DNA of 64,000 nt, taken from Salinivirgaceae bacterium. GTDB taxonomy: Bacteria > Bacteroidota > Bacteroidia > Bacteroidales > SZUA-534. Shown one piece after another: positions 7,201 through 38,067 of the stretch (its first letter is position 1; the number at the start of each line of letters is the position of its first letter). The translations under genes were made by a program, and so were the position numbers. The notes under the pieces are model-generated. The model saw only the letters and a list, made by a program, of their open reading frames with translations, had not been told where the DNA came from and ran no database searches. The DNA is taken from positions 32,001 to 96,000 of the forward strand of contig JAKSOL010000001.1 in assembly GCA_024405635.1 (NCBI GenBank), read 5' to 3'.

Positions 7201-7207
7201 AAAAGTG

Positions 7208-7310: not shown

Positions 7311-7413
7311 GTGCTTAATTTTATTCGTGCAATAGCTTTTTTAAAAAAGTTGCAAAAATTTTTGCTTTGACATTTTTTTCTGAAACTTTGGCTCGCAAAG
7401 CTTTTTCATAATT

Positions 7414-9258
7414 ATGTGTGGGATTGTTGGTATATATTGCAATAACTCAATTAATTACGAGGTCCAACTTGGACAAATGATGGACTCAATTGTTCATCGT
7501 GGACCTGATGCTGCTGGCCAATATGTTGGTAAAAAAGTGTTGCTGGGGCACCGTAGGTTGAGTATTATCGACCTTTCTGATCGCGCAAATCAGCCGATGT
7601 TTTCTCATTCTGGGCGCACTGTTATGGTTTTTAATGGTGAGGTTTATAATTATCGTGAAATTGCTTCGCAACTCAACATAAGCACAAATACACATTCTGA
7701 TTCAGAGGTCATAGTTGAAGCTTTTGAGCAACTTGGGCCAGATTTTGTAAAAATGCTCAATGGAATGTTTTCAATAGTGTTTTGCGATGTTGAAACCCAA
7801 CGTCTTTTTTTCTTCCGCGATCGTTTGGGTGTAAAACCTCTGTTTTATTATCAGCAAAATGGAGTTTTTGCTTTTGCATCAGAATTGAAGGCGATTGAAA
7901 AATTGTCTGATTTTCAGTGTAATAAATCAATAAACAAATCGGCAGTTGGACAGTTTTTGCACTTGGGTTACATTCCTCAACCTAATACTATATATAATAA
8001 TGTGTATAAGTTTCCACAAGGTTGTTGGGCAGAGTATGATGGCTCCGATTTACATGTACACAACTATTGGTCGCTGAATGATTTTGTTGATAATCCAGTA
8101 TTTACAAGTGAAACGCCAGCGCTTGATTATCTGCAAGAGTTGATTGAGAGTTCGGTGTCATATAGGTTGATTGCTGATGTGCCTTTTGGCACTTTTTTGA
8201 GCGGAGGTATTGACAGTTCTTTGGTGACTGCGGTGGCCAATAAGGTATCTGGTGGTGGGTTGAATACTTTTTCAATAGGTTTTGATGATGCTAAGCACGA
8301 TGAGTCAGAAAAAGCTCGTGCAGTAGCAAAGGCATTGGGTACTAATCATCATGAATATCGAATGACTCGCCATGATGCTATTGATCAAATTGCCGACATG
8401 TTTTCTTATTACGACGAGCCGTATGCCGATTCGTCGGCTTTGCCAAGTATGTTAGTTTCAAAAATGGCTCGTCAACAGGTTACTATGGTTCTTACCGGCG
8501 ATGGTGGCGACGAGTTGTTTATGGGTTATGGCATGTATAATTGGGCTCAAAGGTTGCAAAATCCATTGGCGCGCACTTTAAGAAAACCGATTTATTTGGC
8601 ATCGAAACTATTGAACGATAGGTGGAAACGCATAGGCTTAATGTTTGATTGGCAAAAAGACGATTTTCTTCCGTCGCATATTTTTTCGCAAGAGCAGTAT
8701 TTATTCTCAGCAAACGATTTGCAACGATTTGTTGGCAATAAACCTGATGTGACGGCAATGGTTAAGGGGTTGTCGGAGGTTGATCATTTGACGGCTGCTG
8801 AGCTGCAGTCGGTTTTTGATATGCTATATTATTTGCCAGACGATTTGTTGACAAAAGTAGATAGGGCATCGATGCGTTATTCGCTAGAGTCGAGAGTGCC
8901 GTTGCTTGATTATCGTGTTGTTGAGTTTGCGGCAGGGGTACCGGTTAATATGAAAATACGCAACGGAGAGCAGAAGTATCTTCTTAAACAATTGCTGTAT
9001 AGGTATTTGCCTAAAGAATTGTTTAATGCTCCAAAGTGGGGGTTCAGCGTTCCTTTGGCCGATTGGTTACTTAATGAATTGCTGCCTTTACGTGAAAAGT
9101 ATTTGAATCGAGATTTAGTAGAATCGGCTGGTTTAGTCGATTATAGTAGTGTAGAGGAAATGTGTAGCAGGTTTTATTTCGAAGGACAACGCCATTTGTA
9201 TAATCGCGTTTGGGCGTTGATTTGTTTGCATCAGTGGTATGCAAATAGAATGATGTAG
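7414..9258 (+). CDS. asnB: Asparagine synthase (glutamine-hydrolysing) / class II amidotransferase, possibly polysaccharide-related
   Basis: MCGI N-terminal nucleophile, HRGPD, HRRLSIIDL, FNGEVYN, LSGGIDSS and GDGGDELF. Confidence 0.92.
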   Translation: MCGIVGIYCNNSINYEVQLGQMMDSIVHRGPDAAGQYVGKKVLLGHRRLSIIDLSDRANQPMFSHSGRTVMVFNGEVYNYREIASQLNISTNTHSDSEVIVEAFEQLGPDFVKMLNGMFSIVFCDVETQRLFFFRDRLGVKPLFYYQQNGVFAFASELKAIEKLSDFQCNKSINKSAVGQFLHLGYIPQPNTIYNNVYKFPQGCWAEYDGSDLHVHNYWSLNDFVDNPVFTSETPALDYLQELIESSVSYRLIADVPFGTFLSGGIDSSLVTAVANKVSGGGLNTFSIGFDDAKHDESEKARAVAKALGTNHHEYRMTRHDAIDQIADMFSYYDEPYADSSALPSMLVSKMARQQVTMVLTGDGGDELFMGYGMYNWAQRLQNPLARTLRKPIYLASKLLNDRWKRIGLMFDWQKDDFLPSHIFSQEQYLFSANDLQRFVGNKPDVTAMVKGLSEVDHLTAAELQSVFDMLYYLPDDLLTKVDRASMRYSLESRVPLLDYRVVEFAAGVPVNMKIRNGEQKYLLKQLLYRYLPKELFNAPKWGFSVPLADWLLNELLPLREKYLNRDLVESAGLVDYSSVEEMCSRFYFEGQRHLYNRVWALICLHQWYANRMM

Positions 9259-23788: not shown

Positions 23789-26700
23789 ATGGCAAAAGAG
23801 AAAAAATTCATCACATGTGATGGAAACCAAGCCGCAGCTCATGTGGCCTACATGTTCTCCGAGGTTGCAGCCATCTACCCAATTACTCCGTCATCAACCA
23901 TGGCAGAGTATGTTGACGAGTGGGCAGCACAAGGACGCAAGAATATTTTTGGTGAAACAGTGTTAGTGCAAGAAATGCAAAGCGAGGGTGGAGCAGCAGG
24001 AGCTGTTCACGGTTCATTGCAAGCAGGAGCTCTAACAACCACTTTCACAGCATCGCAAGGTTTGTTGCTGATGATTCCAAATATGTACAAAATTGCAGGT
24101 GAATTTTTGCCAAGCGTGTTCCATGTTTCAGCACGTACATTGGCTTCTCACTCGCTATGTATTTTTGGTGACCATCAAGACGTTATGGCTTGCCGTCAAA
24201 CCGGTTTTGCAATGTTGGCTGAGGGTTCAGTACAAGAGGTTATGGACCTTGCAGGTGTTGCTCACCTTTCAACCATCAAAAGCCGTGTGCCTTTCTTGAA
24301 CTTCTTTGATGGTTTCCGTACTTCACACGAGATTCAAAAGATTGAAATGCTTGAGAACGATGACCTAGCTGGTCTTATCGATCAAAAAGCATTGGCTGAA
24401 TTCCGTAGCCGTGCTCTTACTCCTGAGCATCCAGTTGCTCGTGGTATGGCAGAAAACCCTGATACATTCTTTACACATCGTGAGAGCTGCAACCCATATT
24501 ACGAAGCAGTTCCTGCAATTGTTGAGGAATACATGAACAAAGTGAGCGAAATAACAGGTCGTTCATATCATTTGTTCGATTATTATGGTGCTGCTGATGC
24601 AGAGCGTGTGATTGTAGCAATGGGTTCGGTAACCGAGTGCATTCGCGAAACAATTGACTATCTTGCTGCAAAAGGTGAGAAAGTTGGTTTGGTTGCAGTT
24701 CACTTGTATCGCCCATTCTCAGTTAAACACTTGTTGGCTGCAGTTCCAAAATCGTGCAAAGTTCTTACTGTACTTGACCGCACTAAAGAACCAGGAGCAA
24801 ATGGCGAACCATTATTGCTTGACGTTAAAGACGCATTTTATGGCGTTGAGGGCGCTCCAGTAATTGTTGGAGGTCGTTATGGTTTGGGTTCAAACGATAC
24901 CACACCTGCTCAAATTATTGCTGTTTACAAAAACATGGCTCTACCAACACCAAAAGATCACTTTACCGTTGGTATTGTTGACGATGTTACATTTACTAGC
25001 CTTCCAAAAGAAGAGGAAGTTGCAGTTGGTGGACAAGGCATGTTTGAGGGTAAATTCTATGGCTTGGGTGCTGATGGTACTGTTGGTGCAAACAAAAACT
25101 CAATCAAGATTATTGGTGAAACAACTGATAAACGTTGCCAAGCTTACTTCTCATACGACTCTAAAAAATCGGGAGGTTTCACTTGCTCGCACTTGCGTTT
25201 TGGCGACAGCCCAATCCGTTCAACATACTTGGTAAACACACCAAACTTTGTTGCATGCCACGTGCAAGCTTACTTGCACATGTACGACGTGACCAAAGGT
25301 TTGCAAAAGAATGGTTCGTTCTTGTTGAACACCATTTGGGACGGCGAAGAATTGGCAAATAACTTGCCAAACAAAGTGAAAGCTTACTTTGCTAAAAACA
25401 ACATTAAAGTTTACTATATCAACGCAACCAAAATTGCACAAGAGATTGGTCTAGGTAACCGTACCAACACTATTCTTCAATCGGCATTCTTCCGCATTAC
25501 TGGTGTTATTCCAGTTGAGAAAGCAGTTGAGGAGATGAAACACTTTATTGTAAAATCGTACGGCAAAAAAGGCGAAGACGTTGTAAACAAAAACTATGCA
25601 GCTGTTGACCGAGGTGGCGAGTACAAAGAGTTGGCAGTTGATCCAGCTTGGGCAAACTTGGCCGAGGACAAAAAAGCAGCAAACAACGATCCTGATTTCA
25701 TCAACAACGTAGTTCGTGTAATCAACGCACAAGATGGCGATACACTTCCAACTTCGGCATTTAAAGGCATTGAGGATGGTACATGGCCACAAGGTACTGC
25801 AGCATACGAAAAACGTGGTGTATCGGCATTCGTTCCACAATGGAATGCTGCAGATTGTACAGAGTGTAACCGTTGCGCATTTGTTTGTCCTCACGCTTGC
25901 ATCCGCCCATTGGTAATGGATGCTGAAGAGGCTAAAGGCATTAAAGGTGAGGTTCGCGAAATGAAAGCTCCAGCTACAATGAAGGGCATGATGTTCCGTA
26001 TGCAAGTTGGTGTAATGGACTGCTTGGGTTGCGGCAACTGTATTGATGTTTGCTTGGGCAACAACGAGGAGAAAGGCAAAAATGCTCTTAAAATGGTTCC
26101 ATTTGATCCAGAATCAGAGTCAGCTAAAGTTGAGGCTGCTAACTGGGAGTATGGCGTTAAGAACGTTACCAGCAAACAAGATTTGGTTGACATTACCGCA
26201 AACGCTAAAAACTCACAATTTGCACAACCATTGTTTGAGTTCTCGGGTGCATGCTCTGGTTGCGGTGAAACACCATACGTTAAACTTGTAAGCCAATTGT
26301 TTGGCGACCGCCAAATGGTTGCAAATGCTACAGGTTGCTCGTCAATCTATTCAGGTTCAATTCCTTCAACTCCTTACACAACCAACGCTAAAGGTCAAGG
26401 TCCAGCTTGGGCAAACTCATTGTTTGAGGACTTCTGCGAGTTTGGTCTTGGTATGGATTTGGCAAACGAGAAGATGCGCAAACGCATCGAGTCTTTGTTG
26501 AACAAAATGATTGAAAGCGACAAATCGTCAGAGGGTTACAAAGAGGCAGCAAAAGAGTGGATTGCAAACAAAGATACCGCGTCAGGTAGCCGCGCTGCAG
26601 CTGAAAAGTTGATTCCATTTATTAAAGAGAGTGCTGCAGCTGGTTGCCCAGTTTGCAAACAACTTGACGAAATGAGCCACTTCCTTGTAAAACGTTCGCA

Positions 26701-27349
26701 ATGGATTATTGGTGGTGACGGTGCTTCATACGATATCGGTTACGGAGGTCTTGACCATGTTATTGCATCTGGTCGCGACGTAAATATCTTGGTTCTTGAT
26801 ACCGAGGTTTACTCAAACACCGGTGGCCAATCGTCAAAAGCAACACCTCTTGGTGCTATTGCAAAATTTGCTGCATCGGGTAAACGTGTTCGCAAAAAAG
26901 ACCTTGGTATGATTGCTACAACTTATGGTTATGTTTATGTAGCTCAAGTTGCAATGGGCGCTGACCAAGCACAAACACTTAAAGCTTTGAAAGAGGCTGA
27001 AGCTTATCCAGGTCCTTCAATCGTTATTGCATACGCTCCATGTATCAACCACGGTTTGAAGAAAGGTATGGGTCACGCACAAGCTGAGGAAGCTGCAGCT
27101 GTAAAATGCGGTTACTGGCACTTGTGGCGCTTCAACCCAGCACTTGAGGCTGAAGGTAAAAACCCATTCACTCTTGACTCAAAAGAGCCAGATTGGAGCG
27201 GATTCCAAACATTCCTTGAGGGTGAGGTTCGCTTTGCATCAGTTAAGAAACAATTCCCAACTGAGGCAGCTGAACTTTACGCAGCATGCGAGGAAATGGC
27301 TAAAAAACGCTATCAATCGTACATTCGCATGACCAAGATGGAATACTAA
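23789..27349 (+). CDS. nifJ: Pyruvate:ferredoxin/flavodoxin oxidoreductase
   Basis: YPITPSS, MQSEGGAAG, two CxxCxxCxxxC ferredoxin motifs, ACSGCGE, GGDG...N TPP motif and APCINHG. Confidence 0.97.
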   Translation: MAKEKKFITCDGNQAAAHVAYMFSEVAAIYPITPSSTMAEYVDEWAAQGRKNIFGETVLVQEMQSEGGAAGAVHGSLQAGALTTTFTASQGLLLMIPNMYKIAGEFLPSVFHVSARTLASHSLCIFGDHQDVMACRQTGFAMLAEGSVQEVMDLAGVAHLSTIKSRVPFLNFFDGFRTSHEIQKIEMLENDDLAGLIDQKALAEFRSRALTPEHPVARGMAENPDTFFTHRESCNPYYEAVPAIVEEYMNKVSEITGRSYHLFDYYGAADAERVIVAMGSVTECIRETIDYLAAKGEKVGLVAVHLYRPFSVKHLLAAVPKSCKVLTVLDRTKEPGANGEPLLLDVKDAFYGVEGAPVIVGGRYGLGSNDTTPAQIIAVYKNMALPTPKDHFTVGIVDDVTFTSLPKEEEVAVGGQGMFEGKFYGLGADGTVGANKNSIKIIGETTDKRCQAYFSYDSKKSGGFTCSHLRFGDSPIRSTYLVNTPNFVACHVQAYLHMYDVTKGLQKNGSFLLNTIWDGEELANNLPNKVKAYFAKNNIKVYYINATKIAQEIGLGNRTNTILQSAFFRITGVIPVEKAVEEMKHFIVKSYGKKGEDVVNKNYAAVDRGGEYKELAVDPAWANLAEDKKAANNDPDFINNVVRVINAQDGDTLPTSAFKGIEDGTWPQGTAAYEKRGVSAFVPQWNAADCTECNRCAFVCPHACIRPLVMDAEEAKGIKGEVREMKAPATMKGMMFRMQVGVMDCLGCGNCIDVCLGNNEEKGKNALKMVPFDPESESAKVEAANWEYGVKNVTSKQDLVDITANAKNSQFAQPLFEFSGACSGCGETPYVKLVSQLFGDRQMVANATGCSSIYSGSIPSTPYTTNAKGQGPAWANSLFEDFCEFGLGMDLANEKMRKRIESLLNKMIESDKSSEGYKEAAKEWIANKDTASGSRAAAEKLIPFIKESAAAGCPVCKQLDEMSHFLVKRSQWIIGGDGASYDIGYGGLDHVIASGRDVNILVLDTEVYSNTGGQSSKATPLGAIAKFAASGKRVRKKDLGMIATTYGYVYVAQVAMGADQAQTLKALKEAEAYPGPSIVIAYAPCINHGLKKGMGHAQAEEAAAVKCGYWHLWRFNPALEAEGKNPFTLDSKEPDWSGFQTFLEGEVRFASVKKQFPTEAAELYAACEEMAKKRYQSYIRMTKMEY

Positions 27350-27371
27350 TCCATCTTTGCCATAAAAATTG

Positions 27372-27409
27372 AACCGCCCTTGTGCCATTAGGTGCAAGGG
27401 CGGTTTTTT
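27372..27409 (+). terminator. nifJ intrinsic terminator
   Basis: AACCGCCCTTGTGCC-ATTA-GGTGCAAGGGCGGTT followed by a T tract. Confidence 0.9.
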
Positions 27410-27720
27410 AATGAAAATTGTAATATGGGCTAATTATTAAAAAGACATTATAGTATTTAATGCACATTTTAAAGTACGAGAGTGCTTGTTGTTTTTTTTA
27501 GATCATAGGATGTAATGCATGCCGTGATTGTGGTATATAATTTCATGAATATATTTTGGTTATGGCGTCAGATTCATTGAGTTTTTCAATTTCTTTTTGT
27601 CTTCATATAATATTATCATTTGCGTCAACTTGCAAAATGTACAGAAAATGCAAAAGTTAATTTTGTCAAATTTGTAGCACAGAAACGTATTCTTTGCCAA
27701 AAAAATCGTTTATTTGCCAT

Positions 27721-28090
27721 AACACACACGCTGAGGGCTCCAAACAATAGAGTGCGGGCGTGTATGTGAACATATACAAGACTGGCGTTTATTTTCGCCT
27801 TGTCAGTTGACTATTCGAAACTACCACTTTTGAATTTACAGCCAATGACATGGTAAGAGGTAGATGCCACGGGGTGGTATATTCACTCCGTAGTGTGCTG
27901 TGAGCAATGCTCATAGTACACTTATGGGGTCATATATATCCAACAGCGTGGGTGTCTCTCTTTCTGTCTAGCTGTAAAGGCTGTGGTAGGCCTCGGATAG
28001 TGGACAGACGGAGTAAGACTTCCACGTTTTTGTTTTGTATATGGGGAGAATAGTACATATAGGAAACTAGTCATCGGGAGTCTGACTATA
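27721..28090 (+). ncRNA. Candidate large structured RNA (leader or sRNA) preceding the Hsp70-kinase operon
   Basis: Nested helices: 27771-27782/28032-28043, 27810-27818/27993-28001, 27821-27827/27983-27989, 27835-27842/27971-27978 and 27855-27859/27958-27962. Internal hairpins at 27869-27891 and 27892-27922. Imperfect pairs are G-U on the + strand. Confidence 0.7.
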
Positions 28091-28105
28091 GGAAAGGCAC
28101 AAAGC

Positions 28106-29566
28106 ATGTCTAACATTATAGCAAATAACCCATATCGATTCCTTGGTATATATTCCAATTCATCCATCAAGGATCGTGTCGCCAATGCAAATAAAATAAA
28201 GGCATACTCTAAAGTTGGCAAAAACATAGAATTCCCTTCGGATTTAAACCACATGCTTCCTGCCGTCCATCGTGATATGGACGAATTAGAAAAAGCATCT
28301 GCCAGTTTGAATATGCCAATAGACCAGCTTAAGAATGCCTTTTTCTGGTTTGTTAATGCCACATCGATGGATGGCATTGCATTGGGACATTTGCAATCTG
28401 GTGATACAGATAAAGCTATTGACATCTTCGGCAAAAAGGAAACCTTCTCATCTCTTCTTAATCTAGCCGTAATTGCTTCTATACAAGGTGACAAAAAAAG
28501 GTACGTTACAAATCTTATTAAGATTATCCATGACGAAACATACCGCACAGGCCTCATCTGTGCCGTTTGTGGAGATACATTTCATATTGATGAAGATGAA
28601 TTAATCCATCTTTTCATAGACGAACTGGCGAAAGTTGCCAATGCATCCGAGCTGCCATCATTGTTCGAAAATCCACATTCAACAAGTGAAGACAAAAACT
28701 ATGTCGCAAAGCTATCCATTGGTGAACCTATCTCTGCAATAAACAATGCTATTGCGACAGCAAAAGACGCGAACAACGATGCAGAATCCCAGTTTAATGC
28801 AGGATTACTACTCATGACTTCAACAAAGAAGCATCTTGATGTAGTTAAATCCACATTGGGGACTGACGACTTGCAATATCAAATGCTGGCAGACAAGTTG
28901 GCACAGACCATCCTTCAATGCGGCATCAACTATTACAACAAAACAGACGAAGATGACTACATCTCCATTGATAAAGCATACAAATTGCAGCACTATGCAG
29001 AAACTGTTGCTGTCGGTTCGATGCTAAAAAGCAGATGCAAAGAGAATGTGGATATTCTAAATAAGAAAAAGAAAGATTTACCTCCCAAGGAAGTAGCTTC
29101 TGAAGTTAAATACATAACCAACGAGTTAGTCAAATTCTGTAAGTTGCCTGACAAAATATGTCATGCCAAGGATTTGCTTAACAACACAAAGCCTCATCTA
29201 CAAAGCATGAAGGCTAAATTAGGAACATACAACGATTACTACTTAAAAATATCTACAGGCATCGTCAGCAAGGCACTTCAAAATATTATTGAGGAAGTTA
29301 ATGCCGTGCAAAATCTAGACTACTTAGCCATACCAGAAGTCTTTAAATCAGCATGGGAAGCCACTTTGTTAATGGATAAATTTGATATGGAAAGTGACTT
29401 CAAGTCTAGTCGCTATAACATGAATCGCACCACACTAAAAAAAATGTGCGATGAACTAGGCATAAAAACAAGCACTAGCATTTTCAACAACAGTGACGAA
29501 AACTGGGGGTGTTGGATAGTCGCAGCAATCGTTTTTATAATCATCTGTATCTCACAATGTCATTAA
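28106..29566 (+). CDS. All-helical protein with a J-domain-like N-terminus (no HPD) and a C-terminal TM anchor
   Basis: The NNPYRFLG start resembles J-domain helix I; helical repeats follow; the tail is WGCWIVAAIVFIIICISQCH. Confidence 0.6.
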   Translation: MSNIIANNPYRFLGIYSNSSIKDRVANANKIKAYSKVGKNIEFPSDLNHMLPAVHRDMDELEKASASLNMPIDQLKNAFFWFVNATSMDGIALGHLQSGDTDKAIDIFGKKETFSSLLNLAVIASIQGDKKRYVTNLIKIIHDETYRTGLICAVCGDTFHIDEDELIHLFIDELAKVANASELPSLFENPHSTSEDKNYVAKLSIGEPISAINNAIATAKDANNDAESQFNAGLLLMTSTKKHLDVVKSTLGTDDLQYQMLADKLAQTILQCGINYYNKTDEDDYISIDKAYKLQHYAETVAVGSMLKSRCKENVDILNKKKKDLPPKEVASEVKYITNELVKFCKLPDKICHAKDLLNNTKPHLQSMKAKLGTYNDYYLKISTGIVSKALQNIIEEVNAVQNLDYLAIPEVFKSAWEATLLMDKFDMESDFKSSRYNMNRTTLKKMCDELGIKTSTSIFNNSDENWGCWIVAAIVFIIICISQCH

Positions 29567-29570
29567 AAAT

Positions 29571-30518
29571 ATGAAAGTACTAAAACATCTAATCATTATC
29601 GGAATGTGCGTTACACCTGCACTTGTTTACGCACAAATCGACAGCACTGCTTTCGATAAGCAGCAGATAATAACTATTGAACAGAAATTAAACGTTCAAC
29701 AAGAAAGGTTGTCAGAATTGGACAAAATGATTAATGAGAAAGCTTCTATAAGCCAAATTAATTCTGTTCAAGCGAACTTGACAAACCTCAAATCGGCTAT
29801 AGAAGAGCAAAAAGTTTCTGTTGAGAACCTTATGTCTATGATTGAGCAGAATAAGCAAAATATTAAGAAAACTGCTGATCAACTTGGCGTTGAAATTGAC
29901 AAAACAAAAGTTTCTCTCAACGCAAAAGCCAACAACGACGATTTGCAAAACAAATCAATCATAGGCTTTATATTACTGACTTTGCTTGCTGTTATCCTTG
30001 CAGTTATCGCGTTCGTATTTGGCAAACGCATAAGCAAGAGTCATACAGATGTTGACGAGCTAAAACAGAAAGCAGAAAAAATCAATGAAGACATCCTCAA
30101 CAAGTTCTCTGTTGAAATGAACGAAATGCAGAAGATTTCTGCATCGCTTAGTGCACTATCCGACGTGCAGAAGTCTAACGGCAATGCAGAACAAGACCAC
30201 TCGCTCATCAAGACACTTGCCGACCGCATTACATTTATGGAAATGACACTCTATAAAATGGACAAAGACGTAAGGGGCTACAAGCAATTGTCTAAATCTA
30301 TAGCACAGATGAAAGATAATTTGCTGGCTAATGGCTACGAGCTTGTAGATATGTTAGGTAAAGAGTATAATGAAGGAATGAGGGCAACTGCTAATTTTAT
30401 TGATGACGATTCAATAGAACTAGGCAAACAAATCATCACAGCAATCATCAAGCCTCAGATCAACTACAAAGGTGTAATGATACAAGCAGCACAAATAACA
30501 GTAAGTCAAAACAACTAA
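29571..30518 (+). CDS. Membrane-spanning GrpE-like protein
   Basis: Signal peptide, coiled coil, TM (IIGFILLTLLAVILAVIAFVFG), second coil, then a GrpE-like head GYELVDMLGKEY...ITAIIKPQINYKGVMIQAAQITVSQ. Directly upstream of the Hsp70. Confidence 0.7.
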   Translation: MKVLKHLIIIGMCVTPALVYAQIDSTAFDKQQIITIEQKLNVQQERLSELDKMINEKASISQINSVQANLTNLKSAIEEQKVSVENLMSMIEQNKQNIKKTADQLGVEIDKTKVSLNAKANNDDLQNKSIIGFILLTLLAVILAVIAFVFGKRISKSHTDVDELKQKAEKINEDILNKFSVEMNEMQKISASLSALSDVQKSNGNAEQDHSLIKTLADRITFMEMTLYKMDKDVRGYKQLSKSIAQMKDNLLANGYELVDMLGKEYNEGMRATANFIDDDSIELGKQIITAIIKPQINYKGVMIQAAQITVSQNN

Positions 30519-30523
30519 ATACA

Positions 30524-33025
30524 ATGGCACAAGTAAAAATGAAATACGGAATTGACTTGGGAACAACCAATTCCGCAATATGCAAAATGGAGAATGGCGA
30601 ACCATCCATTAAGAAAACTGATACACTTAAAGATACTCTGCCTTCATGTGTGTCGTTCACAAAAAAGCAAGTTATTAAAGTAGGTGATAGCGCATACAAC
30701 GATTTACGCCAAGATAAATCAAGAGCAACTAAAACCCTGGCAAAAGGTAAAGAAAATGTCTTTATTGAATTCAAACGCACAATGGGCCTTGACACTCCAC
30801 ACGAGAGTTCAAACATGGGGCGGTCGTATTCGTCAGAAGAACTGTCGTCAGAAGTTCTGAAGGCATTAAAGTCGTTTGTTTCTGAAGACGCAATAAATGC
30901 TGCCGTAATCACTATACCGGCAAAATTCAAGGCCGACCAAATTGCTGCAACAAAAAGAGCAGCGACAATGGCCGGCATTGACCATTGCGAACTCCTGCAA
31001 GAACCTATTGCTGCATCTATGGCTTATGGACTTAGTTCGGCACAAAAGAATGGCACGTGGTTGGTTTTTGACTTTGGTGGTGGCACGTTCGATGCTGCAC
31101 TTTTGAGAGTAGAAGATGGTATTATGCAAGTGAAAGATACTGAGGGGGACAATTATCTCGGTGGCAAGAACTTGGATTATGCAATAGTGGATGGTGTTAT
31201 CATACCATACTTGAAAGAAAACTATAAAATTGACGGCATATTGTCAGATGACACCAAAAGAGAAATTCTTCGCGATGCCATGAAGTTCTATGCCGAACAG
31301 GCAAAGAATCAATTGTCTTTCAAAGAAAAATGTGACATCACTTCGCAACTGGATGAATTTGGAGAAGATGATGAAGGCAATGAGATAGAACTTGATATGG
31401 TTGTAACTCAGAGCCAAATAGCATCCGTAGTTGCTCCTGTATTCCAAAAGGCAATAGATATATGTAAGGACTTGTTGCAGCGAAACAACTTGTCTGGCAA
31501 CAATCTTGACTCGCTGATACTTGTTGGTGGACCGACATATTCACCAGTGCTACGTCAGATGCTAAAAGAGCAAATAACGTCCGGTGTTGATACAAGTATC
31601 GATCCAATGACAGCTGTTGCAAAAGGTGCTGCGCTTTATGCTTCAAGTATTGACAGCGAAGCCAAAGAAGAGATAAAAGCTGGGACTATCGCGTTGGATC
31701 TTTCGTATGAATCGAGCTCTGTCGAACAAGTTGAGTTTGTATCGGTAAAACTACTGCGAAATGAATGTACGGGTAATGTGCCGTCACAACTATTCGTAGA
31801 ACTCACACGCAATGACAAAGGCTGGTCGAGCGGAAAAGTTTCCATTAATGAGATAGGAGATGTCATTGAATGTCAGCTCATGGAAGGTAAGGCAAATTCG
31901 TTTGCTATTGTAGCATACGACGAAAAAGGCACGGTACTCCCATGCTTCCCGAACGAAGTAAATATCATGCAAGGCCTTGTCGTAGGCAATGCTGTATTAC
32001 CATACGGAATCGGCATAGAAGTTCATGATAGCGCGAGGAATAAAGATGTCTTTATTCCTATGAAGGGACTGGAAAAAAATCAGCCAATACCAGCGGTTGG
32101 AATCCGAAACGGCCTGAAAACTTCACGTCAGATTCGCCCTGGCATGACTGCAGACAGATTAGTTATTCCTATTTATCAAGGCGAATATAACGCTGAAGGT
32201 ACAAGTGCCATATACAACGACCATGTGTTTGACGTTGAGATAACTGGCGATGATGTCCCTGCGCTTGTTCCTGCCAATAGCGATATCGACATCACTATCA
32301 AAGTGGACAAATCACAGGGAATGCTTCTTGAAACCACATTCCCAGTTATCGGAGAGACCGTTGAAAAAATCATTGAGGTTAAACAAAGAAGTGGTGTAGA
32401 TGCCAATGACCTGTCTTCAAGAATACGAGAAGCAAAGAGCAAATTAAGGGGTCTTAAGTCAAGCGGGATATCGGCAAGCGAAACATCAGAAGCAGAAGCT
32501 GCACTAAACGATGTCGAAAATCGTTTTGATGGAGAAAAAAATTCCGAAGACGGAAAGATGCATTTGCTTGCAGACTTACGTCGTGCATTCTTAAAAATAG
32601 AAGAAGTTGAGAATGCACATGAATGGGAATCCATAGAGAATCAGCTACGTGAAGAATTTGACAAACTTGAAAAGGCTAATAACGACCTTGGAAACAAATA
32701 TGATTCACAGGTAGAAGACCTTCGCAAGCAGACAGATATAGCTATACGTCAAAAGAATGCTGATATGGGACGTCAAGTATTGAGTGATATTCGATCTGTA
32801 TTTGTAGGGGTTACACTTATCTATCAGCTTGTCGGCTTTGTCCGCCACTATAGTTCGGACTTTAATCAGTACAAATGGAAAGACGCAAGCCGAGCTCGTC
32901 GGCTACTCAACCAAGGAATGCAAATTATAGGAAATAATCCTAACGAAGGTGAGTTGCATCCTCTTGTATGTCAAGTGATAGAGTTGCTTGATGAACCAGA
33001 AAGTGAGAAGTTGAAGATAGGATAA
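30524..33025 (+). CDS. Non-canonical Hsp70-family protein (833 aa), not the housekeeping DnaK
   Basis: GIDLGTTNS, LQEPIAA, VFDFGGGTFD and LVGGPT..P. An extra ~110-aa segment lies between the NBD and the SBD-like region (LPYGIGIE..KNQPIP). Confidence 0.9.
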   Translation: MAQVKMKYGIDLGTTNSAICKMENGEPSIKKTDTLKDTLPSCVSFTKKQVIKVGDSAYNDLRQDKSRATKTLAKGKENVFIEFKRTMGLDTPHESSNMGRSYSSEELSSEVLKALKSFVSEDAINAAVITIPAKFKADQIAATKRAATMAGIDHCELLQEPIAASMAYGLSSAQKNGTWLVFDFGGGTFDAALLRVEDGIMQVKDTEGDNYLGGKNLDYAIVDGVIIPYLKENYKIDGILSDDTKREILRDAMKFYAEQAKNQLSFKEKCDITSQLDEFGEDDEGNEIELDMVVTQSQIASVVAPVFQKAIDICKDLLQRNNLSGNNLDSLILVGGPTYSPVLRQMLKEQITSGVDTSIDPMTAVAKGAALYASSIDSEAKEEIKAGTIALDLSYESSSVEQVEFVSVKLLRNECTGNVPSQLFVELTRNDKGWSSGKVSINEIGDVIECQLMEGKANSFAIVAYDEKGTVLPCFPNEVNIMQGLVVGNAVLPYGIGIEVHDSARNKDVFIPMKGLEKNQPIPAVGIRNGLKTSRQIRPGMTADRLVIPIYQGEYNAEGTSAIYNDHVFDVEITGDDVPALVPANSDIDITIKVDKSQGMLLETTFPVIGETVEKIIEVKQRSGVDANDLSSRIREAKSKLRGLKSSGISASETSEAEAALNDVENRFDGEKNSEDGKMHLLADLRRAFLKIEEVENAHEWESIENQLREEFDKLEKANNDLGNKYDSQVEDLRKQTDIAIRQKNADMGRQVLSDIRSVFVGVTLIYQLVGFVRHYSSDFNQYKWKDASRARRLLNQGMQIIGNNPNEGELHPLVCQVIELLDEPESEKLKIG

Positions 33026-33027
33026 TT

Positions 33028-33648
33028 ATGGCATTTTCAATACAACATCCAATACGAAGAATGATTAATCAAGAGGCCGATTATATTCGGTCTCTGATTT
33101 GTCGTTTCCCAGAACAACAAAAAGACTGGATAGATAAAATAGATTCTGAATTCAAGAAATTAGCTCAAACGGAATTTCCTAATGAAAGCGATTCTGCTTA
33201 TCAAATGTATAGATCTTATTCATCAGCTGCCTTGGACTCTTGCGAACTTGAAAAAGACATGTTCTATAAGTCAATGTTCTTGATGACATATATCTATTAT
33301 GAAAGCGCATTGAAAAAAATATTCGCAAAATCGAATGTCAACAAGTCTCTAGAGTATTATATCTCAACAAATCATCTTGAGCTTAAACAAGCTACATATT
33401 CAGATTATGAATTCGTAAAAAAGTATGCCAAGGCTCTCCGTGATCACTTATGTCATAATGGCTACGGTGAAGAATACAAAGTAGAAAAAATCACAAGCAA
33501 GCTAGCTGACTACCCTGAAGTGTCAATCAACGAAGATGGAGTTGTGACTATAACTGATTCAAAATTTATTCTTGATGTTTTGGGAAAAGAACAAAACATT
33601 TTGAATGAAATCGCAGAACGGTTAGGTTTTAAAAATAAAATAATATGA
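33028..33648 (+). CDS. Hypothetical protein, candidate HEPN-domain RNase
   Basis: All-helical; N-terminal YIYYESALK helix and an RxxxxH motif LRDHLCHNG (codons 33439-33456). Confidence 0.55.
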   Translation: MAFSIQHPIRRMINQEADYIRSLICRFPEQQKDWIDKIDSEFKKLAQTEFPNESDSAYQMYRSYSSAALDSCELEKDMFYKSMFLMTYIYYESALKKIFAKSNVNKSLEYYISTNHLELKQATYSDYEFVKKYAKALRDHLCHNGYGEEYKVEKITSKLADYPEVSINEDGVVTITDSKFILDVLGKEQNILNEIAERLGFKNKII

Positions 33649-34746
33649 ACAATAGGATCAAAATAACAAAATGGGCTTCTATAGCTGGATTGACATTCGC
33701 AATAGCTATGCCAATACTCGCAAGAATTGTCGATGGAGAAATATTATCTGACAGTCTGAAATACGCGAAGGGATTTGTAGTGGGATTTTTGGTCTTATTT
33801 TGGAGTGGAATTCTCATCTACGTGATGATAAAATCCAGACACAAAAAAATAGCATCCTTGAATATTGATGCAGACAAGGAGTTTGTTGCTAGTAACGATA
33901 TTCTATTTTCAATTAAGAACAACTACGACAATGTTAAAGGCTTGTTCTCGTCAAATACTACCAATACAAGCAAGAATACATATCAATTAATAGTTGTAGC
34001 CACAATAATAGTTGCTTGTGTGTTTGATTATTTTTCGTTCGTAATAGGGCCTAAAGTCTTGAAATCCTACATATACGACTGCCAAGTTGAACGCCAGAAG
34101 GAACAAATCAATTTGATGAAGGAACTCGCATTTGAAGACATTACCCAAGCAGACTCAATTGCAAGAAAACTTTTCAAGAAGACATATGAAAAAGGTGTGA
34201 TTGTAAACTTATACAAAGACAAAGTCGGAGATTGGTATCATGAAAACTGGGATTTATGTAACAATGTCGCATTTCAGATATTGCGTAATGCAGCTGAAAA
34301 AGGGGAGCACCAGTCACAATTCACTCTTGGGTGTGTTTATGCGGGTGCGAAGTTAGACGACCTGGTTGCGGACCAAGATTGGGACGGCAGTATCACGATT
34401 ATGAAGGAACCTATCGACCGAGCAAGAGCAGCATATTGGTATAAACAAGTAGCGGAAGGTGGTAATGTCAAAGCTATGTGGAATCTTGCAGATGCATAAG
34501 TTAGAGGTATGGGAGTTCCTATGAATAAAGAGAAAGGGGTGGACTGGATAAAAAAAAGCGGCCAATATTGGCGAGAAAAAAAGTCAGAATTTTTTAGGTA
34601 ATCTATAAGAAATTGGTGTTAGGTCATCATATTATGATGACTGGCTTTTGCCACGTGATATTGAGCGCGCAAAATATTGGTGGAGAAAAGCAACAGAACA
34701 AGGTGATGAAGCTGCAAAAAAAAAAATGGAAAATATTTACGAATAA
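33645..34746 (+). pseudogene. Membrane-anchored Sel1-repeat protein with its 3' part disrupted
   Basis: Three TM helices then Sel1 repeats. The Sel1 pattern continues past TAA 34497-34499, a frameshift in the A8 tract 34550-34557 and TAA 34606-34608, through DIERAKYWWRKATEQGDEAA, to a stop at 34746. Confidence 0.8.
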
Positions 34747-34752
34747 ACTCCT

Positions 34753-36510
34753 ATGCTACCGAAAAAAGAACACATAGCAAACTACACAATAACCTTCCCT
34801 TGTAAGGAGGGTGCTTACGCTGAAACATACAGGGTAAAGGGTGCTGATGGTAAAAACTATTTCTTGAAACTTATCAATTGCTCAAAACTAAACCGAAGAC
34901 AATTTGATAACTGCGGGAATATAGTTGAAGTTGACATTGCAAAACAACTGCATCATGACAATATCACTTCATATCATGATAGCGGAGAGATAATATTGAA
35001 TAACAAGCGATATGCATACATTGTTTTCGACTTCATCAGTGGTGAGACTGTTGCGGAGAAGGTGACTCGCGAACAAAGATGTTCTGTATATGATGCTAAG
35101 CAAATTGTTCTTGGTGTTCTTAACGGATTAAAATATCTTCATTCGTTACAAAGACCTGTTATCCATAATGAACTGACCATACAAAATGTCATGCTTGACA
35201 TGACGAGCGGAATACCAGTAGCGAAGATGATTGACTTTGGTTATGCCAGATATATGGATATGGGTATCAGTGCATTTGACAAAGATGGGTTGAATCTATT
35301 CTACGTTGCCCCAGAAGCACTGAATGGCGATTATTCTGTTAGGTCGGATTTGTTTTCTGTAGGAGTTATGCTTTATCATCTCCTGTATGGAATGTTGCCA
35401 TATCACGTAGACTTATCTGATTGTTCCAACATGTCTGAAAAACTTGATGCAATATTAGAAGCAAGACAAAGACCATTGCGAATACCGGACATCGATATAT
35501 TTGAGCTTGACGAGCAACTGCTGAATATTATATCAAAAGCGTTATCAATAAATGTCGATGACAGATTCCAATCGGCAGACGAGTTCATAAAGGCTCTCAA
35601 TGGAGAAATTACGGTAGAGGTTAGCAAACGAGAAAGTCCAACACAAAGAATCACTAAAGAGCAACAACAAATCAATATAAAAAAAGGCAATGGGTTTGCT
35701 GATGTGGCAGGTATGACAGAGTTGAAGAACCAATTACAATCTGACGTTATTGATTTGCTCCAGGACCCAGAGCAGGCGAAGTCACTAGGGATATCCATTC
35801 CCAATGGTCTGCTATTTTACGGACCTCCAGGATGTGGGAAAACATTCTTTGCAGAAAAATTTGCAGAAGAGATTGGTTGCAATTATCAATATGTAAAATG
35901 CTCAGATATTGCATCTCCTTTCATTCATGGAGGGCAGGATAAGATTGCCGCAGTCTTCGACAACGCAAGAAAAAATGCGCCAACGATTCTATTCTTTGAT
36001 GAGATTGATGCCATGATAAAGGATAGGCGTAAGCAAAACAACGTCAGTGAAGCTGGCGAAGTAAATGAATTCTTGACACAGCTTAATAATTGTGGACATG
36101 ATGGCGTTCTTGTTATTGGTGCTACAAACAGGCCTGGCGAAATTGATGAAGCTGCACTACGTGCCGGTAGATTAGAATTGAAGTACTACATTCCATTACC
36201 CGACAAATCTACTCGAGAAAAGATGTTTGAAATTGAACTAAGTCATCGAAAGGTGGATTTTGGCATTGACTACGAGAAATTGGCAGAAATGACAGATGGA
36301 TACATTTCTGCTGATATCAGATTGATTGTTGACACTTCGGCAAGAATGGCATTTAGACAAAAAACTAAAATCACAGAACTTATGTTGATGGAGGCGATAA
36401 AAAACACTAAGCCTAGCTTGACGAAAGAATCTGTGGAGGAACACGAAAACATCAGAAGATATTTTGAAGGTGATGTTCCACAACAAACAAGGAAGAAAGT
36501 AGGATTTTAA
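34753..36510 (+). CDS. Ser/Thr-kinase-like domain fused to a CDC48/FtsH-type AAA+ ATPase
   Basis: Kinase: YFLK, IHNELTIQN, DFG, APE and SDLFSVG. AAA: GPPGCGKT, FFDEID and GATNRP..IDEAALRAGR; C-terminal KVGF. Confidence 0.9.
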   Translation: MLPKKEHIANYTITFPCKEGAYAETYRVKGADGKNYFLKLINCSKLNRRQFDNCGNIVEVDIAKQLHHDNITSYHDSGEIILNNKRYAYIVFDFISGETVAEKVTREQRCSVYDAKQIVLGVLNGLKYLHSLQRPVIHNELTIQNVMLDMTSGIPVAKMIDFGYARYMDMGISAFDKDGLNLFYVAPEALNGDYSVRSDLFSVGVMLYHLLYGMLPYHVDLSDCSNMSEKLDAILEARQRPLRIPDIDIFELDEQLLNIISKALSINVDDRFQSADEFIKALNGEITVEVSKRESPTQRITKEQQQINIKKGNGFADVAGMTELKNQLQSDVIDLLQDPEQAKSLGISIPNGLLFYGPPGCGKTFFAEKFAEEIGCNYQYVKCSDIASPFIHGGQDKIAAVFDNARKNAPTILFFDEIDAMIKDRRKQNNVSEAGEVNEFLTQLNNCGHDGVLVIGATNRPGEIDEAALRAGRLELKYYIPLPDKSTREKMFEIELSHRKVDFGIDYEKLAEMTDGYISADIRLIVDTSARMAFRQKTKITELMLMEAIKNTKPSLTKESVEEHENIRRYFEGDVPQQTRKKVGF

Positions 36511-36521
36511 TACTAAAAAAC

Positions 36522-37013
36522 ATGGAAATAAATGAATTATATCTTAGGACTGCTTTTGCTTGCATGTCTAGTGACGGCGACATAGCAAAAGAAGAAGTTG
36601 CGCTCATAGAAAAAATGAATAATGAGGACCATCTTTTTGGCGATATCAATCTAACTCAAAGGTTAGAGGTGTTGCTTACAGAGATAAACGAACAAGGGTT
36701 GGGTTTCATGAAAAAATTCATAGACGAATTGTCAAAACAAAACCTATCCATCGAGGAAGAATTACAACTTCTAACAATAGCAGCAAAGACAATATATGCT
36801 GATAACAAAGTAGAATATAGCGAGGTGAAGTTTTTTAAGTTGATAAGATCTTGTCTTAAGAAAGTTGATAATCAAACTATCCTTAATTCAATCGAAGAAA
36901 TTGATGAAAATTGGGTAGAAGAAGATATTGTTTGCGATAATGATTTATTGTATGTTTCATATAGCAAAAATGTTGAGATGAAGCTTTTTGATTTGAGTGT
37001 AATAAATAATTAG
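36522..37013 (+). CDS. TerB-family (tellurite-resistance-like) protein
   Basis: Paired acidic motifs ACMSSDGDIAKEE and IYADNKVEYSE. Confidence 0.8.
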   Translation: MEINELYLRTAFACMSSDGDIAKEEVALIEKMNNEDHLFGDINLTQRLEVLLTEINEQGLGFMKKFIDELSKQNLSIEEELQLLTIAAKTIYADNKVEYSEVKFFKLIRSCLKKVDNQTILNSIEEIDENWVEEDIVCDNDLLYVSYSKNVEMKLFDLSVINN

Positions 37014-37034
37014 AGCGCTACTTGACATCTCTCA

Positions 37035-37061
37035 ACTCATTATTAAATGAGTGATTTTTTT
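37035..37061 (+). terminator. Weak terminator ending the island operon
   Basis: ACTCATT-ATTA-AATGAGT then GATTTTTTT. Confidence 0.4.
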
Positions 37062-37067: not shown

Positions 37068-37763
37068 TTACTTCACTTTAAGCGATTTAAGTAGTTCCTT
37101 TTGTTCGGGTGTAATTCGGTAGCTTTCAATTGCTTTTTGTATCGATTTGTTGTGAACCCAAACAGGCAGTTTTTGGCTTGTAATGATTGGCAAGGTTGAA
37201 TCCCATTGTTTGGCTAAAGCTGTTGCAAAGTACCAAGCTTGAGCCATTTGTACGTAGAATTCGGTGTTGGAAACAGCAACAACGCGTTGTAAGTATTCGG
37301 GCTTAAACACTGGCGCATCAAGATAAAAATCCATAAGCATAACAATGCCAAAGCGAACCGAGTAAGTATGCTCCGAGTGTAGCCAACAATCAATATGTTG
37401 AATAAAATGGTTGGTGTTGCGCTTAATAACTTTTGGCGATAGACTGTCGCAAACTGCCCAATTATCGATGTATGGTACCCAGCGCTCAAGTTCGTTAACC
37501 ACGGTTTGGTAGTCTTTGCAACAACATATTAGATAGTCGTGCAGCATGTTTTCTTCGTGAAATGAGTGGGGCAGTTGTTGCATAAAAGCCAAAGACTCGT
37601 TTGTGCCTGCAAGTTGTTTTGCCAATGTGCGAATGTCGGGATTGCGAACGCCAATGAACAACTCGGTTGGCAGTTTTATAATTTTTGCTTGAAATTGCCG
37701 AAATGCAGCAAGTTTTTGTGTGTCGGAGTCGCAAAGCGCACGTAGTTGGTCAATTATTTCCAT
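37068..37763 (-). CDS. DNA alkylation repair protein (AlkD-like)
   Basis: FIGVRNPDIR, IDNWAVCD, YVQMAQAWYFATAL and HNKSIQKAIESYRI. Confidence 0.88.
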   Translation of the reverse strand: MEIIDQLRALCDSDTQKLAAFRQFQAKIIKLPTELFIGVRNPDIRTLAKQLAGTNESLAFMQQLPHSFHEENMLHDYLICCCKDYQTVVNELERWVPYIDNWAVCDSLSPKVIKRNTNHFIQHIDCWLHSEHTYSVRFGIVMLMDFYLDAPVFKPEYLQRVVAVSNTEFYVQMAQAWYFATALAKQWDSTLPIITSQKLPVWVHNKSIQKAIESYRITPEQKELLKSLKVK

Positions 37764-37764
37764 T

Positions 37765-38067
37765 TTATTCAATTGTTTCAATTAAAAAACTAACAGGGCG
37801 AAAACCATCGTTACACGAAATCATTGCCGAATGTGGATTTTGCATCCAACCGTTGTAAAAATTGCCGCCACCGATGGCCAATTCGGTAACAAATTCAACC
37901 ATCGATTGCCATGCGCTGTCGCACATGTTGGTTGGGCGTTGGGCATTGTGGCTTATAAAAGTTTGACCTAACACCATGTCGCATGTGTGTTCAATTGGGT
38001 TTTCGTATTGGGCCATTAAGTCGCTATAGTTGGCCATTCGCATTACTGTAATTCGTACGTCTTTCAT
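37765..38067 (-). CDS. TIGR04076-like small Cys-containing protein
   Basis: VRITV, CD, MCDSAW and SCNDGFRPVSF. Confidence 0.75.
   Translation of the reverse strand: MKDVRITVMRMANYSDLMAQYENPIEHTCDMVLGQTFISHNAQRPTNMCDSAWQSMVEFVTELAIGGGNFYNGWMQNPHSAMISCNDGFRPVSFLIETIE

Follow-up and report, generated by a model that had tools for sequence, protein, structure and literature searches.

An accessory Hsp70 cassette with a membrane-linked core and a variable gene slot in Bacteroidales and other bacteria, preceded in a Salinivirgaceae genome by a multi-copy leader RNA

We analysed 64,000 nucleotides (nt) of DNA from a Salinivirgaceae bacterium of the order Bacteroidales (GenBank assembly GCA_024405635.1, contig JAKSOL010000001.1, positions 32,001 to 96,000, forward strand); this whole stretch is called the window. 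It holds a block of seven + strand open reading frames (ORFs), g1 to g7, over 28106-37013, with a structured leader RNA upstream (Table 1). We found that g1, g2 and the Hsp70 gene g3 are the invariable core of a cassette, that g6 (kinase-like/AAA+) and g7 (TerB) are its usual followers, and that g4 (HEPN) and g5 (Sel1) are cargo of a variable slot and stand outside the core. The cassette is accessory and has spread horizontally across phyla, and the leader RNA, which is not private to it, belongs to a real and general class of leaders that seems not to have been described before. Gene order, co-occurrence, domain families, patchiness, mobility and defence neighbours were observed directly in the genomes compared. 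As for function, we regard the proposal that the cassette is a chaperone-gated anti-phage or anti-mobile-element conflict system as about evenly balanced between right and wrong.

Related loci were collected with the C-terminal half of g3, which retrieved 833 proteins of ~830 amino acids (aa) and 38 genome loci, and with g1, which was used for a metagenome scan and gave six loci, all at <=50% identity and none a close relative of the window. Co-occurrence was scored by tblastn of the seven proteins at 44 related loci (window excluded), the denominators being the assessable loci. g2 adjoined the Hsp70 gene in 39/39 loci and g1 lay upstream of it in 36/36, and g6 and g7 were found downstream in 27/32 and 25/31, respectively. 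All five genes were present in 21 of the 28 loci with long flanks, and the gene order was constant. The membrane-linked module that had been proposed in a first-pass annotation of the window, made from its letters alone, is supported as a conserved, co-inherited gene set, and its distribution is patchy: the cassette occurred in 10 of 401 sampled genomes of the order (~2%), between unrelated flanks.

The same annotation had counted a toxic HEPN RNase and the Sel1 protein among the parts of the system. They are not conserved parts, as g4 was present in one of the 44 other loci (L026), g5 likewise in one, and g5 is broken in the window. Both genes occupy a slot between the Hsp70 and AAA+ genes, which contained 0-3 genes over 26-1776 nt in the loci compared. 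Its contents included CpXC zinc-ribbon proteins with a transmembrane (TM) segment (15 members, Pfam CpXC 2.5e-8), ~90-aa TM proteins (9 members) and ~308-aa TM proteins (6 members), plus singletons. Further genes were seen next to the cassette. In six loci, a gene of ~680 aa with tetratricopeptide repeats (TPR) and a C-terminal retropepsin-like aspartyl protease domain directly adjoined it on the same strand, and in three loci a ClpP paralogue lay just 3' of the TerB gene (Pfam CLP_protease 2.1e-71 in L014), which suggests that ClpP is a proteolytic partner of the AAA+ module. A gene for a thioredoxin-domain protein was added in some loci.

The Hsp70 encoded by g3 is composed of a nucleotide-binding domain (NBD), an insert of ~100 aa, a region resembling the beta part of the substrate-binding domain (SBD), and a helical tail of ~210 aa. 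Residues 9-378 matched Pfam HSP70 (PF00012, 8e-67) over the NBD only, the match ending at profile position 377 of 599, and the ATPase motifs DLGTTNS, DFGGGTFD and LVGGPT were invariant across 26 family members. The protein scored below the NCBIfam cut-offs for DnaK (TIGR02350, 246.4 bits against 822.55) and HscA (217.3 against 708.55), and it was 32% identical to Escherichia coli HscC in the NBD and 32% identical to the DnaK of its own genome. After the insert, residues 486-554 could be aligned with the beginning of the HscC SBD (E 0.002). In genome G080, two matches to the Hsp70 C-terminal region lie ~1.8 kb apart on one contig (C60:3448-4794 and 6616-7737), which may represent a tandem Hsp70 duplication.

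Upstream of g3, the first-pass annotation had seen the J-like and GrpE-like members of an Hsp70 triad; the Hsp70 was confirmed, whereas the J-like partner proved to be without HPD and the GrpE-like one fell below significance. The g1 protein consists of a conserved N-domain of ~90 aa, a TPR-like helical region (positions 95-141 match TPR in the PDB profile search, E 1.4e-5) and a C-terminal hydrophobic anchor, in place of which relatives have a CFI-box-CTERM-type C-terminus. No Pfam family and no J-domain match was found among 26 members of the g1 family, and the PDB profiles likewise gave no J-domain. When the N-domain was compared with 12 Bacteroidales DnaJ J-domains by hhalign, a weak match below significance was obtained (probability 27.5%, E 6.5e-4, 67 columns). 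N8, G14 and D46 are invariant in the family and F43 is at least 90% conserved. The N-domain might be a degenerate J-like domain. Extra g1 paralogues of ~950-1050 aa were noticed at L011:2951-5794, L029:14150-17053, L049:71-2920, L051:5850-8990 and L053:5835-8990; they have the N-terminal domain in common with g1 and carry long unannotated C-terminal extensions, the L011 copy being without a Pfam match.

The g2 protein is predicted to run from a signal peptide through a periplasmic coiled coil, a TM helix and a second, cytoplasmic coiled coil to a C-terminal domain of 110 aa, with a mean column identity of 76% over 19 sequences in the C-domain. No GrpE match was found for it in Pfam, NCBIfam or PDB profiles, and PF01025 run across the genome recovered the housekeeping GrpE and left g2 unmatched. 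An hhalign comparison with GrpE was non-significant (probability 1.1%), although the equivalent GrpE segment was the one aligned. ESM Atlas features of g2 belong to clusters auto-named GrpE at 0.88 and 0.84 (with PF01025 in 65% of the members of the latter), which we treat as leads only. The matches of a whole-protein g2 profile against the PDB were coiled-coil noise and were discarded, and PADLOC-DB v2.0.0 returned a coiled-coil match to LmuB (8.4e-6). The C-domain may be regarded as a candidate GrpE-like nucleotide-exchange module. A membrane-spanning candidate of this kind, which is undescribed as far as our searches reach, could couple the state of the periplasm to a cytoplasmic chaperone.

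The HEPN, Sel1 and TerB labels given to g4, g5 and g7 held, each by way of the protein family. The g4 family comprises proteins of ~205-225 aa, and 77 representatives were retrieved at E<=1e-3. When 50 of its sequences, 20-49% identical, were aligned, R138 and H143 of the RNxxxH motif were invariant (50/50) and N139 was at least 90% conserved; Pfam HEPN_RiboL-PSP matched 16 of the 50 (best E 1.7e-5), and other HEPN profiles matched three members (Cthe2314), three (Swt1) and one (MAE_28990). The window protein alone had no Pfam match at E<=0.01, and at family level g4 is supported as a putative HEPN-domain protein of the variable slot. Similarly, the 284-aa ORF of g5 had no Sel1 match in Pfam, and an intact homologue of 346 aa in L024 matched Pfam Sel1 (PF08238) at 1.8e-12, which supports g5, again at family level, as a predicted Sel1-repeat membrane protein, broken here and carried as slot cargo. 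For g7, Pfam TerB (PF05099) matched 22 of 24 family members at E<=0.1 (best 8.7e-6) and the window protein at E 0.059, and the PDB profile matches were the TerB-like structures 2h5n (0.011) and 2ou3 (0.2); the family thus points to a TerB-like protein.

The fusion of a kinase and an AAA protein that had been read in g6 was found in fold, and a canonical catalytic loop was not. Pfam Pkinase (PF00069, 4.6e-33) is fused to a classical-clade AAA domain (PF00004, 4.2e-34), in which the GPPGCGKT Walker A motif, the Walker B DE and the arginines R470 and R473 of the second region of homology were kept in 34/34 sequences. The loop at residues 138-145 (35164-35193) reads H-N-E-L-T-x-Q-N, in place of the canonical H-R-D-L-K; at the position of the catalytic Asp, 29 of the 34 sequences have Glu, three Asp and two Asn, and Thr stands for Lys in 31. 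The beta3 Lys, the DFG Asp and the APE Glu were kept in 33/34. By these motifs, the domain could be either a pseudokinase or a kinase of atypical type.

A full-length-like g3 homologue was found in one of 60 relatives, the remaining matches being housekeeping DnaK. The hosts of the related loci belong to several Bacteroidales families, and also include Sutterella, Ruminobacter, Enterobacterales and Desulfovibrio metagenome-assembled genomes. For the flanks, scans excluded ORFs <140 aa, the near-duplicate loci L017, L023, L044, L052 and L053, and GyrA (L039) and a GlmS-like protein (L030). The 173 flank proteins fell into 149 clusters, and therefore the flanks are not syntenic between loci. Tyrosine integrases lie on both sides of the cassette in a contig of a Parabacteroides distasonis isolate (L043), and a MobA/VirD2 relaxase lies upstream of it in L016, with the upstream ORFs of L017 and L023 in the same cluster.

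Known defence genes adjoin the cassette in some loci, as had been anticipated. On the Haliscomenobacter plasmid pHALHY02 (NC_015512.1; L093, 8539-16064), the five-gene cassette abuts brxL, pglZ and McrBC-like genes. The annotations there are, in cassette order, CFI-box-CTERM protein, septum formation initiator, Hsp70 family protein, AAA family ATPase and TerB family protein, and the RefSeq names "septum formation initiator" (g2) and "AAA family ATPase" (kinase-AAA) hide a conserved cassette. Among 126 immediate neighbours of the related loci, PADLOC matches were obtained for GajA, GajB, pAgo, AbiEi, AbiEii, RtcR-CARF, PDC-S01 (two proteins) and PDC-S58; these PADLOC results, like the Pfam results for the flanks, are pooled tallies without assignment to loci and without a background rate. 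The cassette was absent from 50,697 phage records, which was counted neither for nor against any reading.

One of the closest known counterparts is the hscC locus of E. coli, with the order ybeQ-ybeR-djlB-ybeT-ybeU-djlC-hscC (NC_000913.3). According to the available part of PMC8215388, HscC acts with DjlB and DjlC at the membrane, and their loss sensitises cells to Cd2+. Both loci place a specialised Hsp70 beside Sel1-repeat proteins and tail-anchored co-chaperones of ~480 aa; the cytoplasmic membrane is the predicted site of action of both, and the physiological importance of both is low or unknown. In contrast, the window Hsp70 has 833 aa and HscC 556 aa, and the former is no closer to HscC over the NBD than to the DnaK of its own genome. 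The HPD tripeptide is missing from the g1 family, which shows no similarity to DjlC (hhalign probability 0.6%); the Pfam tables of the cassette and its neighbours list no DUF1266 protein, and Sel1 is cargo here, found in the window and one other locus. On the E. coli side there is no GrpE-like membrane protein, no kinase-AAA+ and no TerB. On these comparisons, the two loci are alike in outline and not homologous beyond the Hsp70 fold.

The cassette also resembles the DnaK-DnaJ-GrpE triad in having an Hsp70 with intact ATPase motifs and two small partners, encoded at the places where one would look for a J-protein and an exchange factor. Unlike those of the triad, these partners are membrane-anchored and show no significant sequence relation to it, with F-P-x-D in place of HPD, and the housekeeping grpE-dnaJ and dnaK of the genome are located elsewhere. 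Among defence systems, Shango and Bunzi are anti-phage systems that contain TerB, and DnaJ-mediated phage sensing has reportedly been described (PMC12169576). The cassette has in common with Shango, Bunzi, PD-T4-6, the MADS kinase and IetA the use of TerB, a Ser/Thr-kinase-like domain or a classical AAA+, which those systems employ against phages, whereas their helicase or protease partners are absent from the cassette core.

A further parallel is offered by conflict systems that have been predicted from genomes. In the available parts of the sources, HSP70-like NTPases are proposed as switches of conflict systems (10.64898/2026.10.19.760177, PMC7159879), systems with a GAP1-N2 GTPase are predicted to work with HSP70, GrpE and DnaJ-fused proteins (PMC7159879), and CnuD of the CoCoNuT systems is an Hsp70-like protein with degenerate ATPase motifs (PMC11090510). 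The likeness, as far as these texts describe it, lies in an Hsp70 NTPase with co-chaperone-like partners in a mobile, effector-variable multi-gene system, and HEPN is the associated RNase in some of them. However, the cassette is without a GTPase, tubulin, McrBC or coiled-coil nuclease partner, the systems covered in those texts are mainly from Actinobacteria and Firmicutes or linked to McrBC, and the ATPase motifs of the cassette Hsp70 are invariant where those of CnuD are described as degenerate.

The combination was called unnamed in the first-pass annotation, and it stayed so in our comparisons, with no PADLOC-DB v2.0.0 model for its non-generic proteins and no matching description in the literature searched. 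In PADLOC-DB v2.0.0, g3, g4, g5 and g7 had no match at E<=0.01, and g1 had a weak one only (PDLC02421, E 0.0074, no significant stretch). The PADLOC-DB and NCBIfam matches of g6 were to generic, separate kinase and ATPase models (PD-T4-6, MADS kinase, IetA), none of which spans the fusion. The literature search returned no description of this gene set; supplementary tables of predicted systems (PMC7159879, PMC11090510 and later catalogues) lay outside the search and could list the cassette.

Considering these features, we propose a plausible scheme for the cassette, in which we infer every functional step, the direction of signalling and the identity of the effectors. The obligate core would run a private Hsp70 cycle at the cytoplasmic membrane, within a self-contained mobile accessory cassette. 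In this cycle, g1 would be an adaptor held by its tail anchor, with TPR-like helices after a degenerate J-like N-domain; g2 would span the membrane, with a coiled coil in the periplasm and its conserved C-domain in the cytoplasm, and would possibly provide GrpE-like nucleotide exchange; and g3 would be an ATPase-competent Hsp70 with an extended substrate-side region. The cycle could serve as an ATP-driven sensor or switch that responds to envelope perturbation, or to the chaperone being engaged or titrated by foreign proteins. The kinase-like/AAA+ protein and TerB would be the usual output or regulatory pair, and the AAA+ module, joined in some loci by ClpP or an aspartyl protease, would in turn act on client or effector proteins by remodelling or releasing them. 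The slot genes would supply interchangeable clients, modulators or effectors, namely small membrane proteins or, in the window, an HEPN RNase and a Sel1 membrane protein, and the outcome would be growth arrest or the removal of phage proteins. The path drawn in the first-pass annotation, which would run from the envelope through the Hsp70 and the kinase-AAA protein to an RNase, is of the same inferential kind.

A defence role is favoured because of the swap-in slot with HEPN and TM proteins, the mobility, the patchiness and the defence neighbours. Several results weigh against it. The core contains no recognisable nuclease, NADase or pore-former, and the slot was empty in 9 of 33 loci with the core kept; therefore slot genes are not an obligatory or sole effector. 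The calls of g1 as J-like and of g2 as GrpE-like both fall below significance, and the HPD tripeptide of J-domain proteins (PF00226) is absent from the g1 family, in which the F-P-x-D has no His. In the kinase-like domain of g6, the catalytic Asp and Lys are replaced. The flank proteins of the related loci belong mostly to ordinary metabolic families, and the window neighbours are housekeeping genes (nifJ and an alkylation-repair family gene) with no defence island. The proteostasis flavour of the whole (Hsp70, AAA+, ClpP, thioredoxin-domain protein) would suit a stress-tolerance island equally.

Such an island, a mobile unit for transferable quality control of membrane proteins against heat, bile, oxidants, metals or envelope damage, would resemble the heat-resistance islands of Enterobacteria (the transmissible locus of stress tolerance, tLST) and the Cd2+ and UV phenotypes of E. 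coli hscC, and we think it unlikely. The component families are all of proteostasis type, TerB comes from tellurite and stress-response families, carriage on mobile elements is as for stress islands, and the housekeeping neighbours in the window fit as well, as does the Cd2+ sensitivity on loss of HscC and DjlB/DjlC, which act together at the membrane, in the available part of PMC8215388. However, a hypervariable slot whose cargo includes HEPN and small TM proteins typifies conflict systems, not chaperone islands; BREX and McrBC-like genes adjoin the cassette, and Gabija, pAgo and AbiE models match neighbours in related loci; no small heat-shock or ClpB-type partner was found in the 25 commonest Pfam families of the 126 neighbours; and only ~2% of the sampled genomes carry it. 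A different proposal makes the triad a dedicated biogenesis or maintenance chaperone that inserts, folds or regulates membrane proteins of the slot or of the mobile element (for exclusion or transfer), with no immune role. The TM segments of many slot proteins, the tail anchor of g1, the bitopic g2, and the relaxase or integrases adjoining some loci would all be expected of it, but the full core persists in the loci whose slot is empty, the slot families are unrelated and include a soluble HEPN protein, and the flanking element genes differ among loci, so that we consider it quite improbable. Whichever role applies, Hsp70 is the best-studied chaperone, the jobs of specialised bacterial paralogues such as HscC are still unclear, and for an Hsp70 cycle that works as an immune switch there are so far only genome-based predictions. 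As a test case in gut bacteria, the cassette is compact, conserved and portable, with one copy in a P. distasonis isolate and another on a plasmid beside BREX genes.

The leader RNA precedes g1 and ends in a long closing helix and a U-run at 28027-28036. The sequence 27720-28105 folded at -148.2 kcal/mol, against -106.4 +/- 5.7 kcal/mol for 100 dinucleotide shuffles (z -7.4 for the + strand, -5.9 for the opposite one). It aligned to leaders of ~330 nt upstream of g1 in nine related loci, and RNAalifold on this alignment gave 73 pairs, 27 of them with compensatory changes. A blastn search of the window leader against the related loci gave no match, because BLAST is too insensitive for this homology, which was seen after the related leaders had been aligned mutually and then with the window. 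The box upstream of the RNA has one mismatch to TAnnTTTG, the Bacteroidetes -7 consensus, and the aligned leaders have TAATTTTG at its position.

A covariance model, R1, was built from the 3' domain (window 27870-28036). Over 24 sequences, 91.6% of the cells pair, compared with 77.2% after shuffling and 38-52% in slid controls, and 34 of 40 pairs show double changes, a number reached by 0 of 500 shuffles; the alignment of the 24 copies was fitted to the R1 model, which favours the structure. Of the 44 related loci, 13 had an R1 match 5' of the cassette, and ~11 of the contigs were without upstream sequence. It also found six copies in the window's own genome and matched 16 of 151 genomes of the order. 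Our DNA search of the own genome and 32 genomes of the family had returned the window copy only, and the idea of a single-copy RNA was overturned by the six copies of the covariance model. A same-strand ORF begins 21-442 nt 3' of the RNA in 16 of the 17 copies with downstream sequence (18 copies were examined), and the ORF called for the 17th (L058) overlaps with the RNA end; the copies mostly end in CG(C/T) followed by a T-run. In L028, the leader RNA precedes the TPR-retropepsin-like gene, not g1.

The first-pass annotation was thus right about a large folded RNA, given the fold energy and the covariation, and wrong in placing it as the private head of the system, since it is a multi-copy leader before unrelated operons. 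A private component, for example an RNA antitoxin or a guide for the HEPN protein, would agree with its position directly upstream on the same strand and with its conservation 5' of g1 in the 13 loci. However, copies in the own genome stand before different operons (T9SS cargo, that is, cargo of the type IX secretion system; Peptidase_S74; FN3; a TerB operon), five genomes with strong RNA matches had no match to the Hsp70 C-terminal query, genome G052 with two RNA matches was wholly unmatched by the Hsp70 query, and HEPN occurs in one other locus only. A private role is therefore largely refuted by the distribution of the RNA, and we hold it to be very improbable indeed.

With its promoter-like box, conserved fold of ~310 nt and terminator-like end, the RNA would be a separate and general cis-regulatory element, probably acting as a gate for read-through into accessory operons, this one included. 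Processive-antitermination leaders include EAR and the leaders of Bacteroides capsule loci. The likeness to riboswitches, attenuators and antitermination leaders, known here from anatomy alone, lies in a promoter-proximal structured element with a terminator-like stem and U-run followed by a same-strand ORF, and the presence of multiple copies per genome ahead of accessory operons is a likeness to other cis-acting leader RNAs. The leader RNA differs from these in having no Rfam 15 family: among 4227 families, no gathering-score match was found in 27300-28200, where matches at E<=1 were at chance level, and ten loci holding other copies gave no match at E<=0.01. The small RNA FopS was considered and rejected as an identity, being 65-70 nt in the available part of PMC11697453, much smaller than the leader. 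Finding the signal of the leader could reveal co-regulation of accessory surface and defence genes in abundant gut bacteria. The leaders of the metagenome loci L051 and L053, 5' of the first g1-like gene, contain a distinct conserved noncoding stretch of ~230 nt (82% identity, not matched by R1), which may be another leader type.

Taken as one claim, the two subjects would amount to a class of chaperone-gated immunity together with a new regulatory RNA class. A membrane Hsp70 cycle with a J-like adaptor and a transmembrane GrpE-like factor would sense phage attack on the envelope and drive a pseudokinase-AAA+ unfoldase and TerB, and these would set free or destroy exchangeable effectors, either membrane proteins or RNases; a widespread Bacteroidales leader RNA class of ~310 nt would, as a riboswitch-like or antitermination gate, control operons for defence, surface proteins and T9SS cargo. 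That both halves are correct in full is doubtful.

The seven genes are on the same strand, as first described, whereas the gaps of 11 nt or less hold with one reservation. From g1 to g7, the spacings are 4, 5 and 2 nt, a 4-nt overlap (g4/g5), 253 nt (g5/g6) and 11 nt. The gap of 253 nt arises because g5 is broken, and it shrinks to 6 nt only when g5 is read through to 34746, on which the tight packing depends. An in-frame TAA (34497-34499) ends the ORF, followed by a same-frame piece (34500-34601) and a shifted piece (34609-34746), with Sel1-like remnants extending to 34746. The sequencing-run comparison used contigs throughout. A DNA contig of run X3, from a separate study, spans 33854-36225 with one gap (34716) and nine other differing letters; the frame break of g5 is therefore not peculiar to this assembly. 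The poly-A tract at 34711-34721, which lies inside the final piece of the broken Sel1 gene and directly 5' of the g6 start, is two bases shorter in the run X2 contig and one base shorter in the run X3 contig, and the length difference at 34716 could be a homopolymer error or length variation. Contigs of one RNA library (X5, 90-99% identity) overlap parts of g1, the g2/g3 junction, g3 and g6, and the library may hold DNA. None of them covers 27300-27953, and an uncovered stretch proves nothing.

Table 1. Positions of the cassette, the leader RNA and associated features. Entries marked window are numbered from the first letter of the window; the others use the coordinates of the respective contig or locus. 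G000 is the window's own genome.
Feature	Sequence	Position	Strand	Remarks
nifJ, left neighbour	window	23789-27349		TIGR02176, E=0
nifJ terminator-like hairpin, left boundary	window	27372-27411	+	11-bp perfect inverted repeat 27372-27382/27395-27405, then T-run
Promoter-like -7 box	window	27709-27716	+	TTTATTTG
Structured leader RNA	window	27720-28037	+	long closing helix at end plus U-run
g1	window	28106-29566	+	486 aa
g2	window	29571-30518	+	315 aa
g3	window	30524-33025	+	833 aa, Hsp70
g4	window	33028-33648	+	206 aa
g5	window	33645-34499; read through to 34746	+	284 aa ORF, broken Sel1 gene
g6	window	34753-36510	+	585 aa
g7	window	36522-37013	+	163 aa
DNA_alkylation-family gene, convergent, right boundary	window	37068-37781	-	Pfam 3.6e-15
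Leader RNA copy	G000, C8	40352-40506	-	upstream of FN3 protein and unknowns
Leader RNA copy	G000, C34	14908-15038	+	upstream of Listeria-Bacteroides-repeat protein with T9SS sorting tail
Leader RNA copy	G000, C16	46126-46257	+	upstream of Peptidase_S74 protein
Leader RNA copy	G000, C27	174-303	-	runs off contig
Leader RNA copy	G000, C23	33767-33951	+	upstream of TerB-domain protein and unknowns of 446 aa and 283 aa
TPR-retropepsin-like gene	L021	719-2776	cassette strand	
TPR-retropepsin-like gene	L026	4295-6328	cassette strand	
TPR-retropepsin-like gene	L028	3174-5219	cassette strand	
TPR-retropepsin-like gene	L034	4229-6262	cassette strand	
TPR-retropepsin-like gene	L040	829-2868	cassette strand	
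TPR-retropepsin-like gene	L011	15513-17567	cassette strand	
ClpP paralogue	L014	4822-5466		
ClpP paralogue	L021	10945-11619		
ClpP paralogue	L029	17378-18070		

The block is bounded, as had been stated, by the nifJ terminator and a convergent gene of the DNA_alkylation family. The hairpin (27372-27405, followed by the T-run) was not listed by a simple terminator scan that allowed loops of 3-8 nt, because its 12-nt loop exceeds that range. Within 6-10 kb 3' of nifJ in six relatives, none of the downstream genes of the window was shared, and the boundaries of an insertion could not be defined from the nifJ flanks because the genomes of the relatives are too divergent. Elsewhere in the window, a tRNA at 7208-7282 (- strand) was the sole Rfam gathering-level match in the 64 kb, at 63.5 bits.

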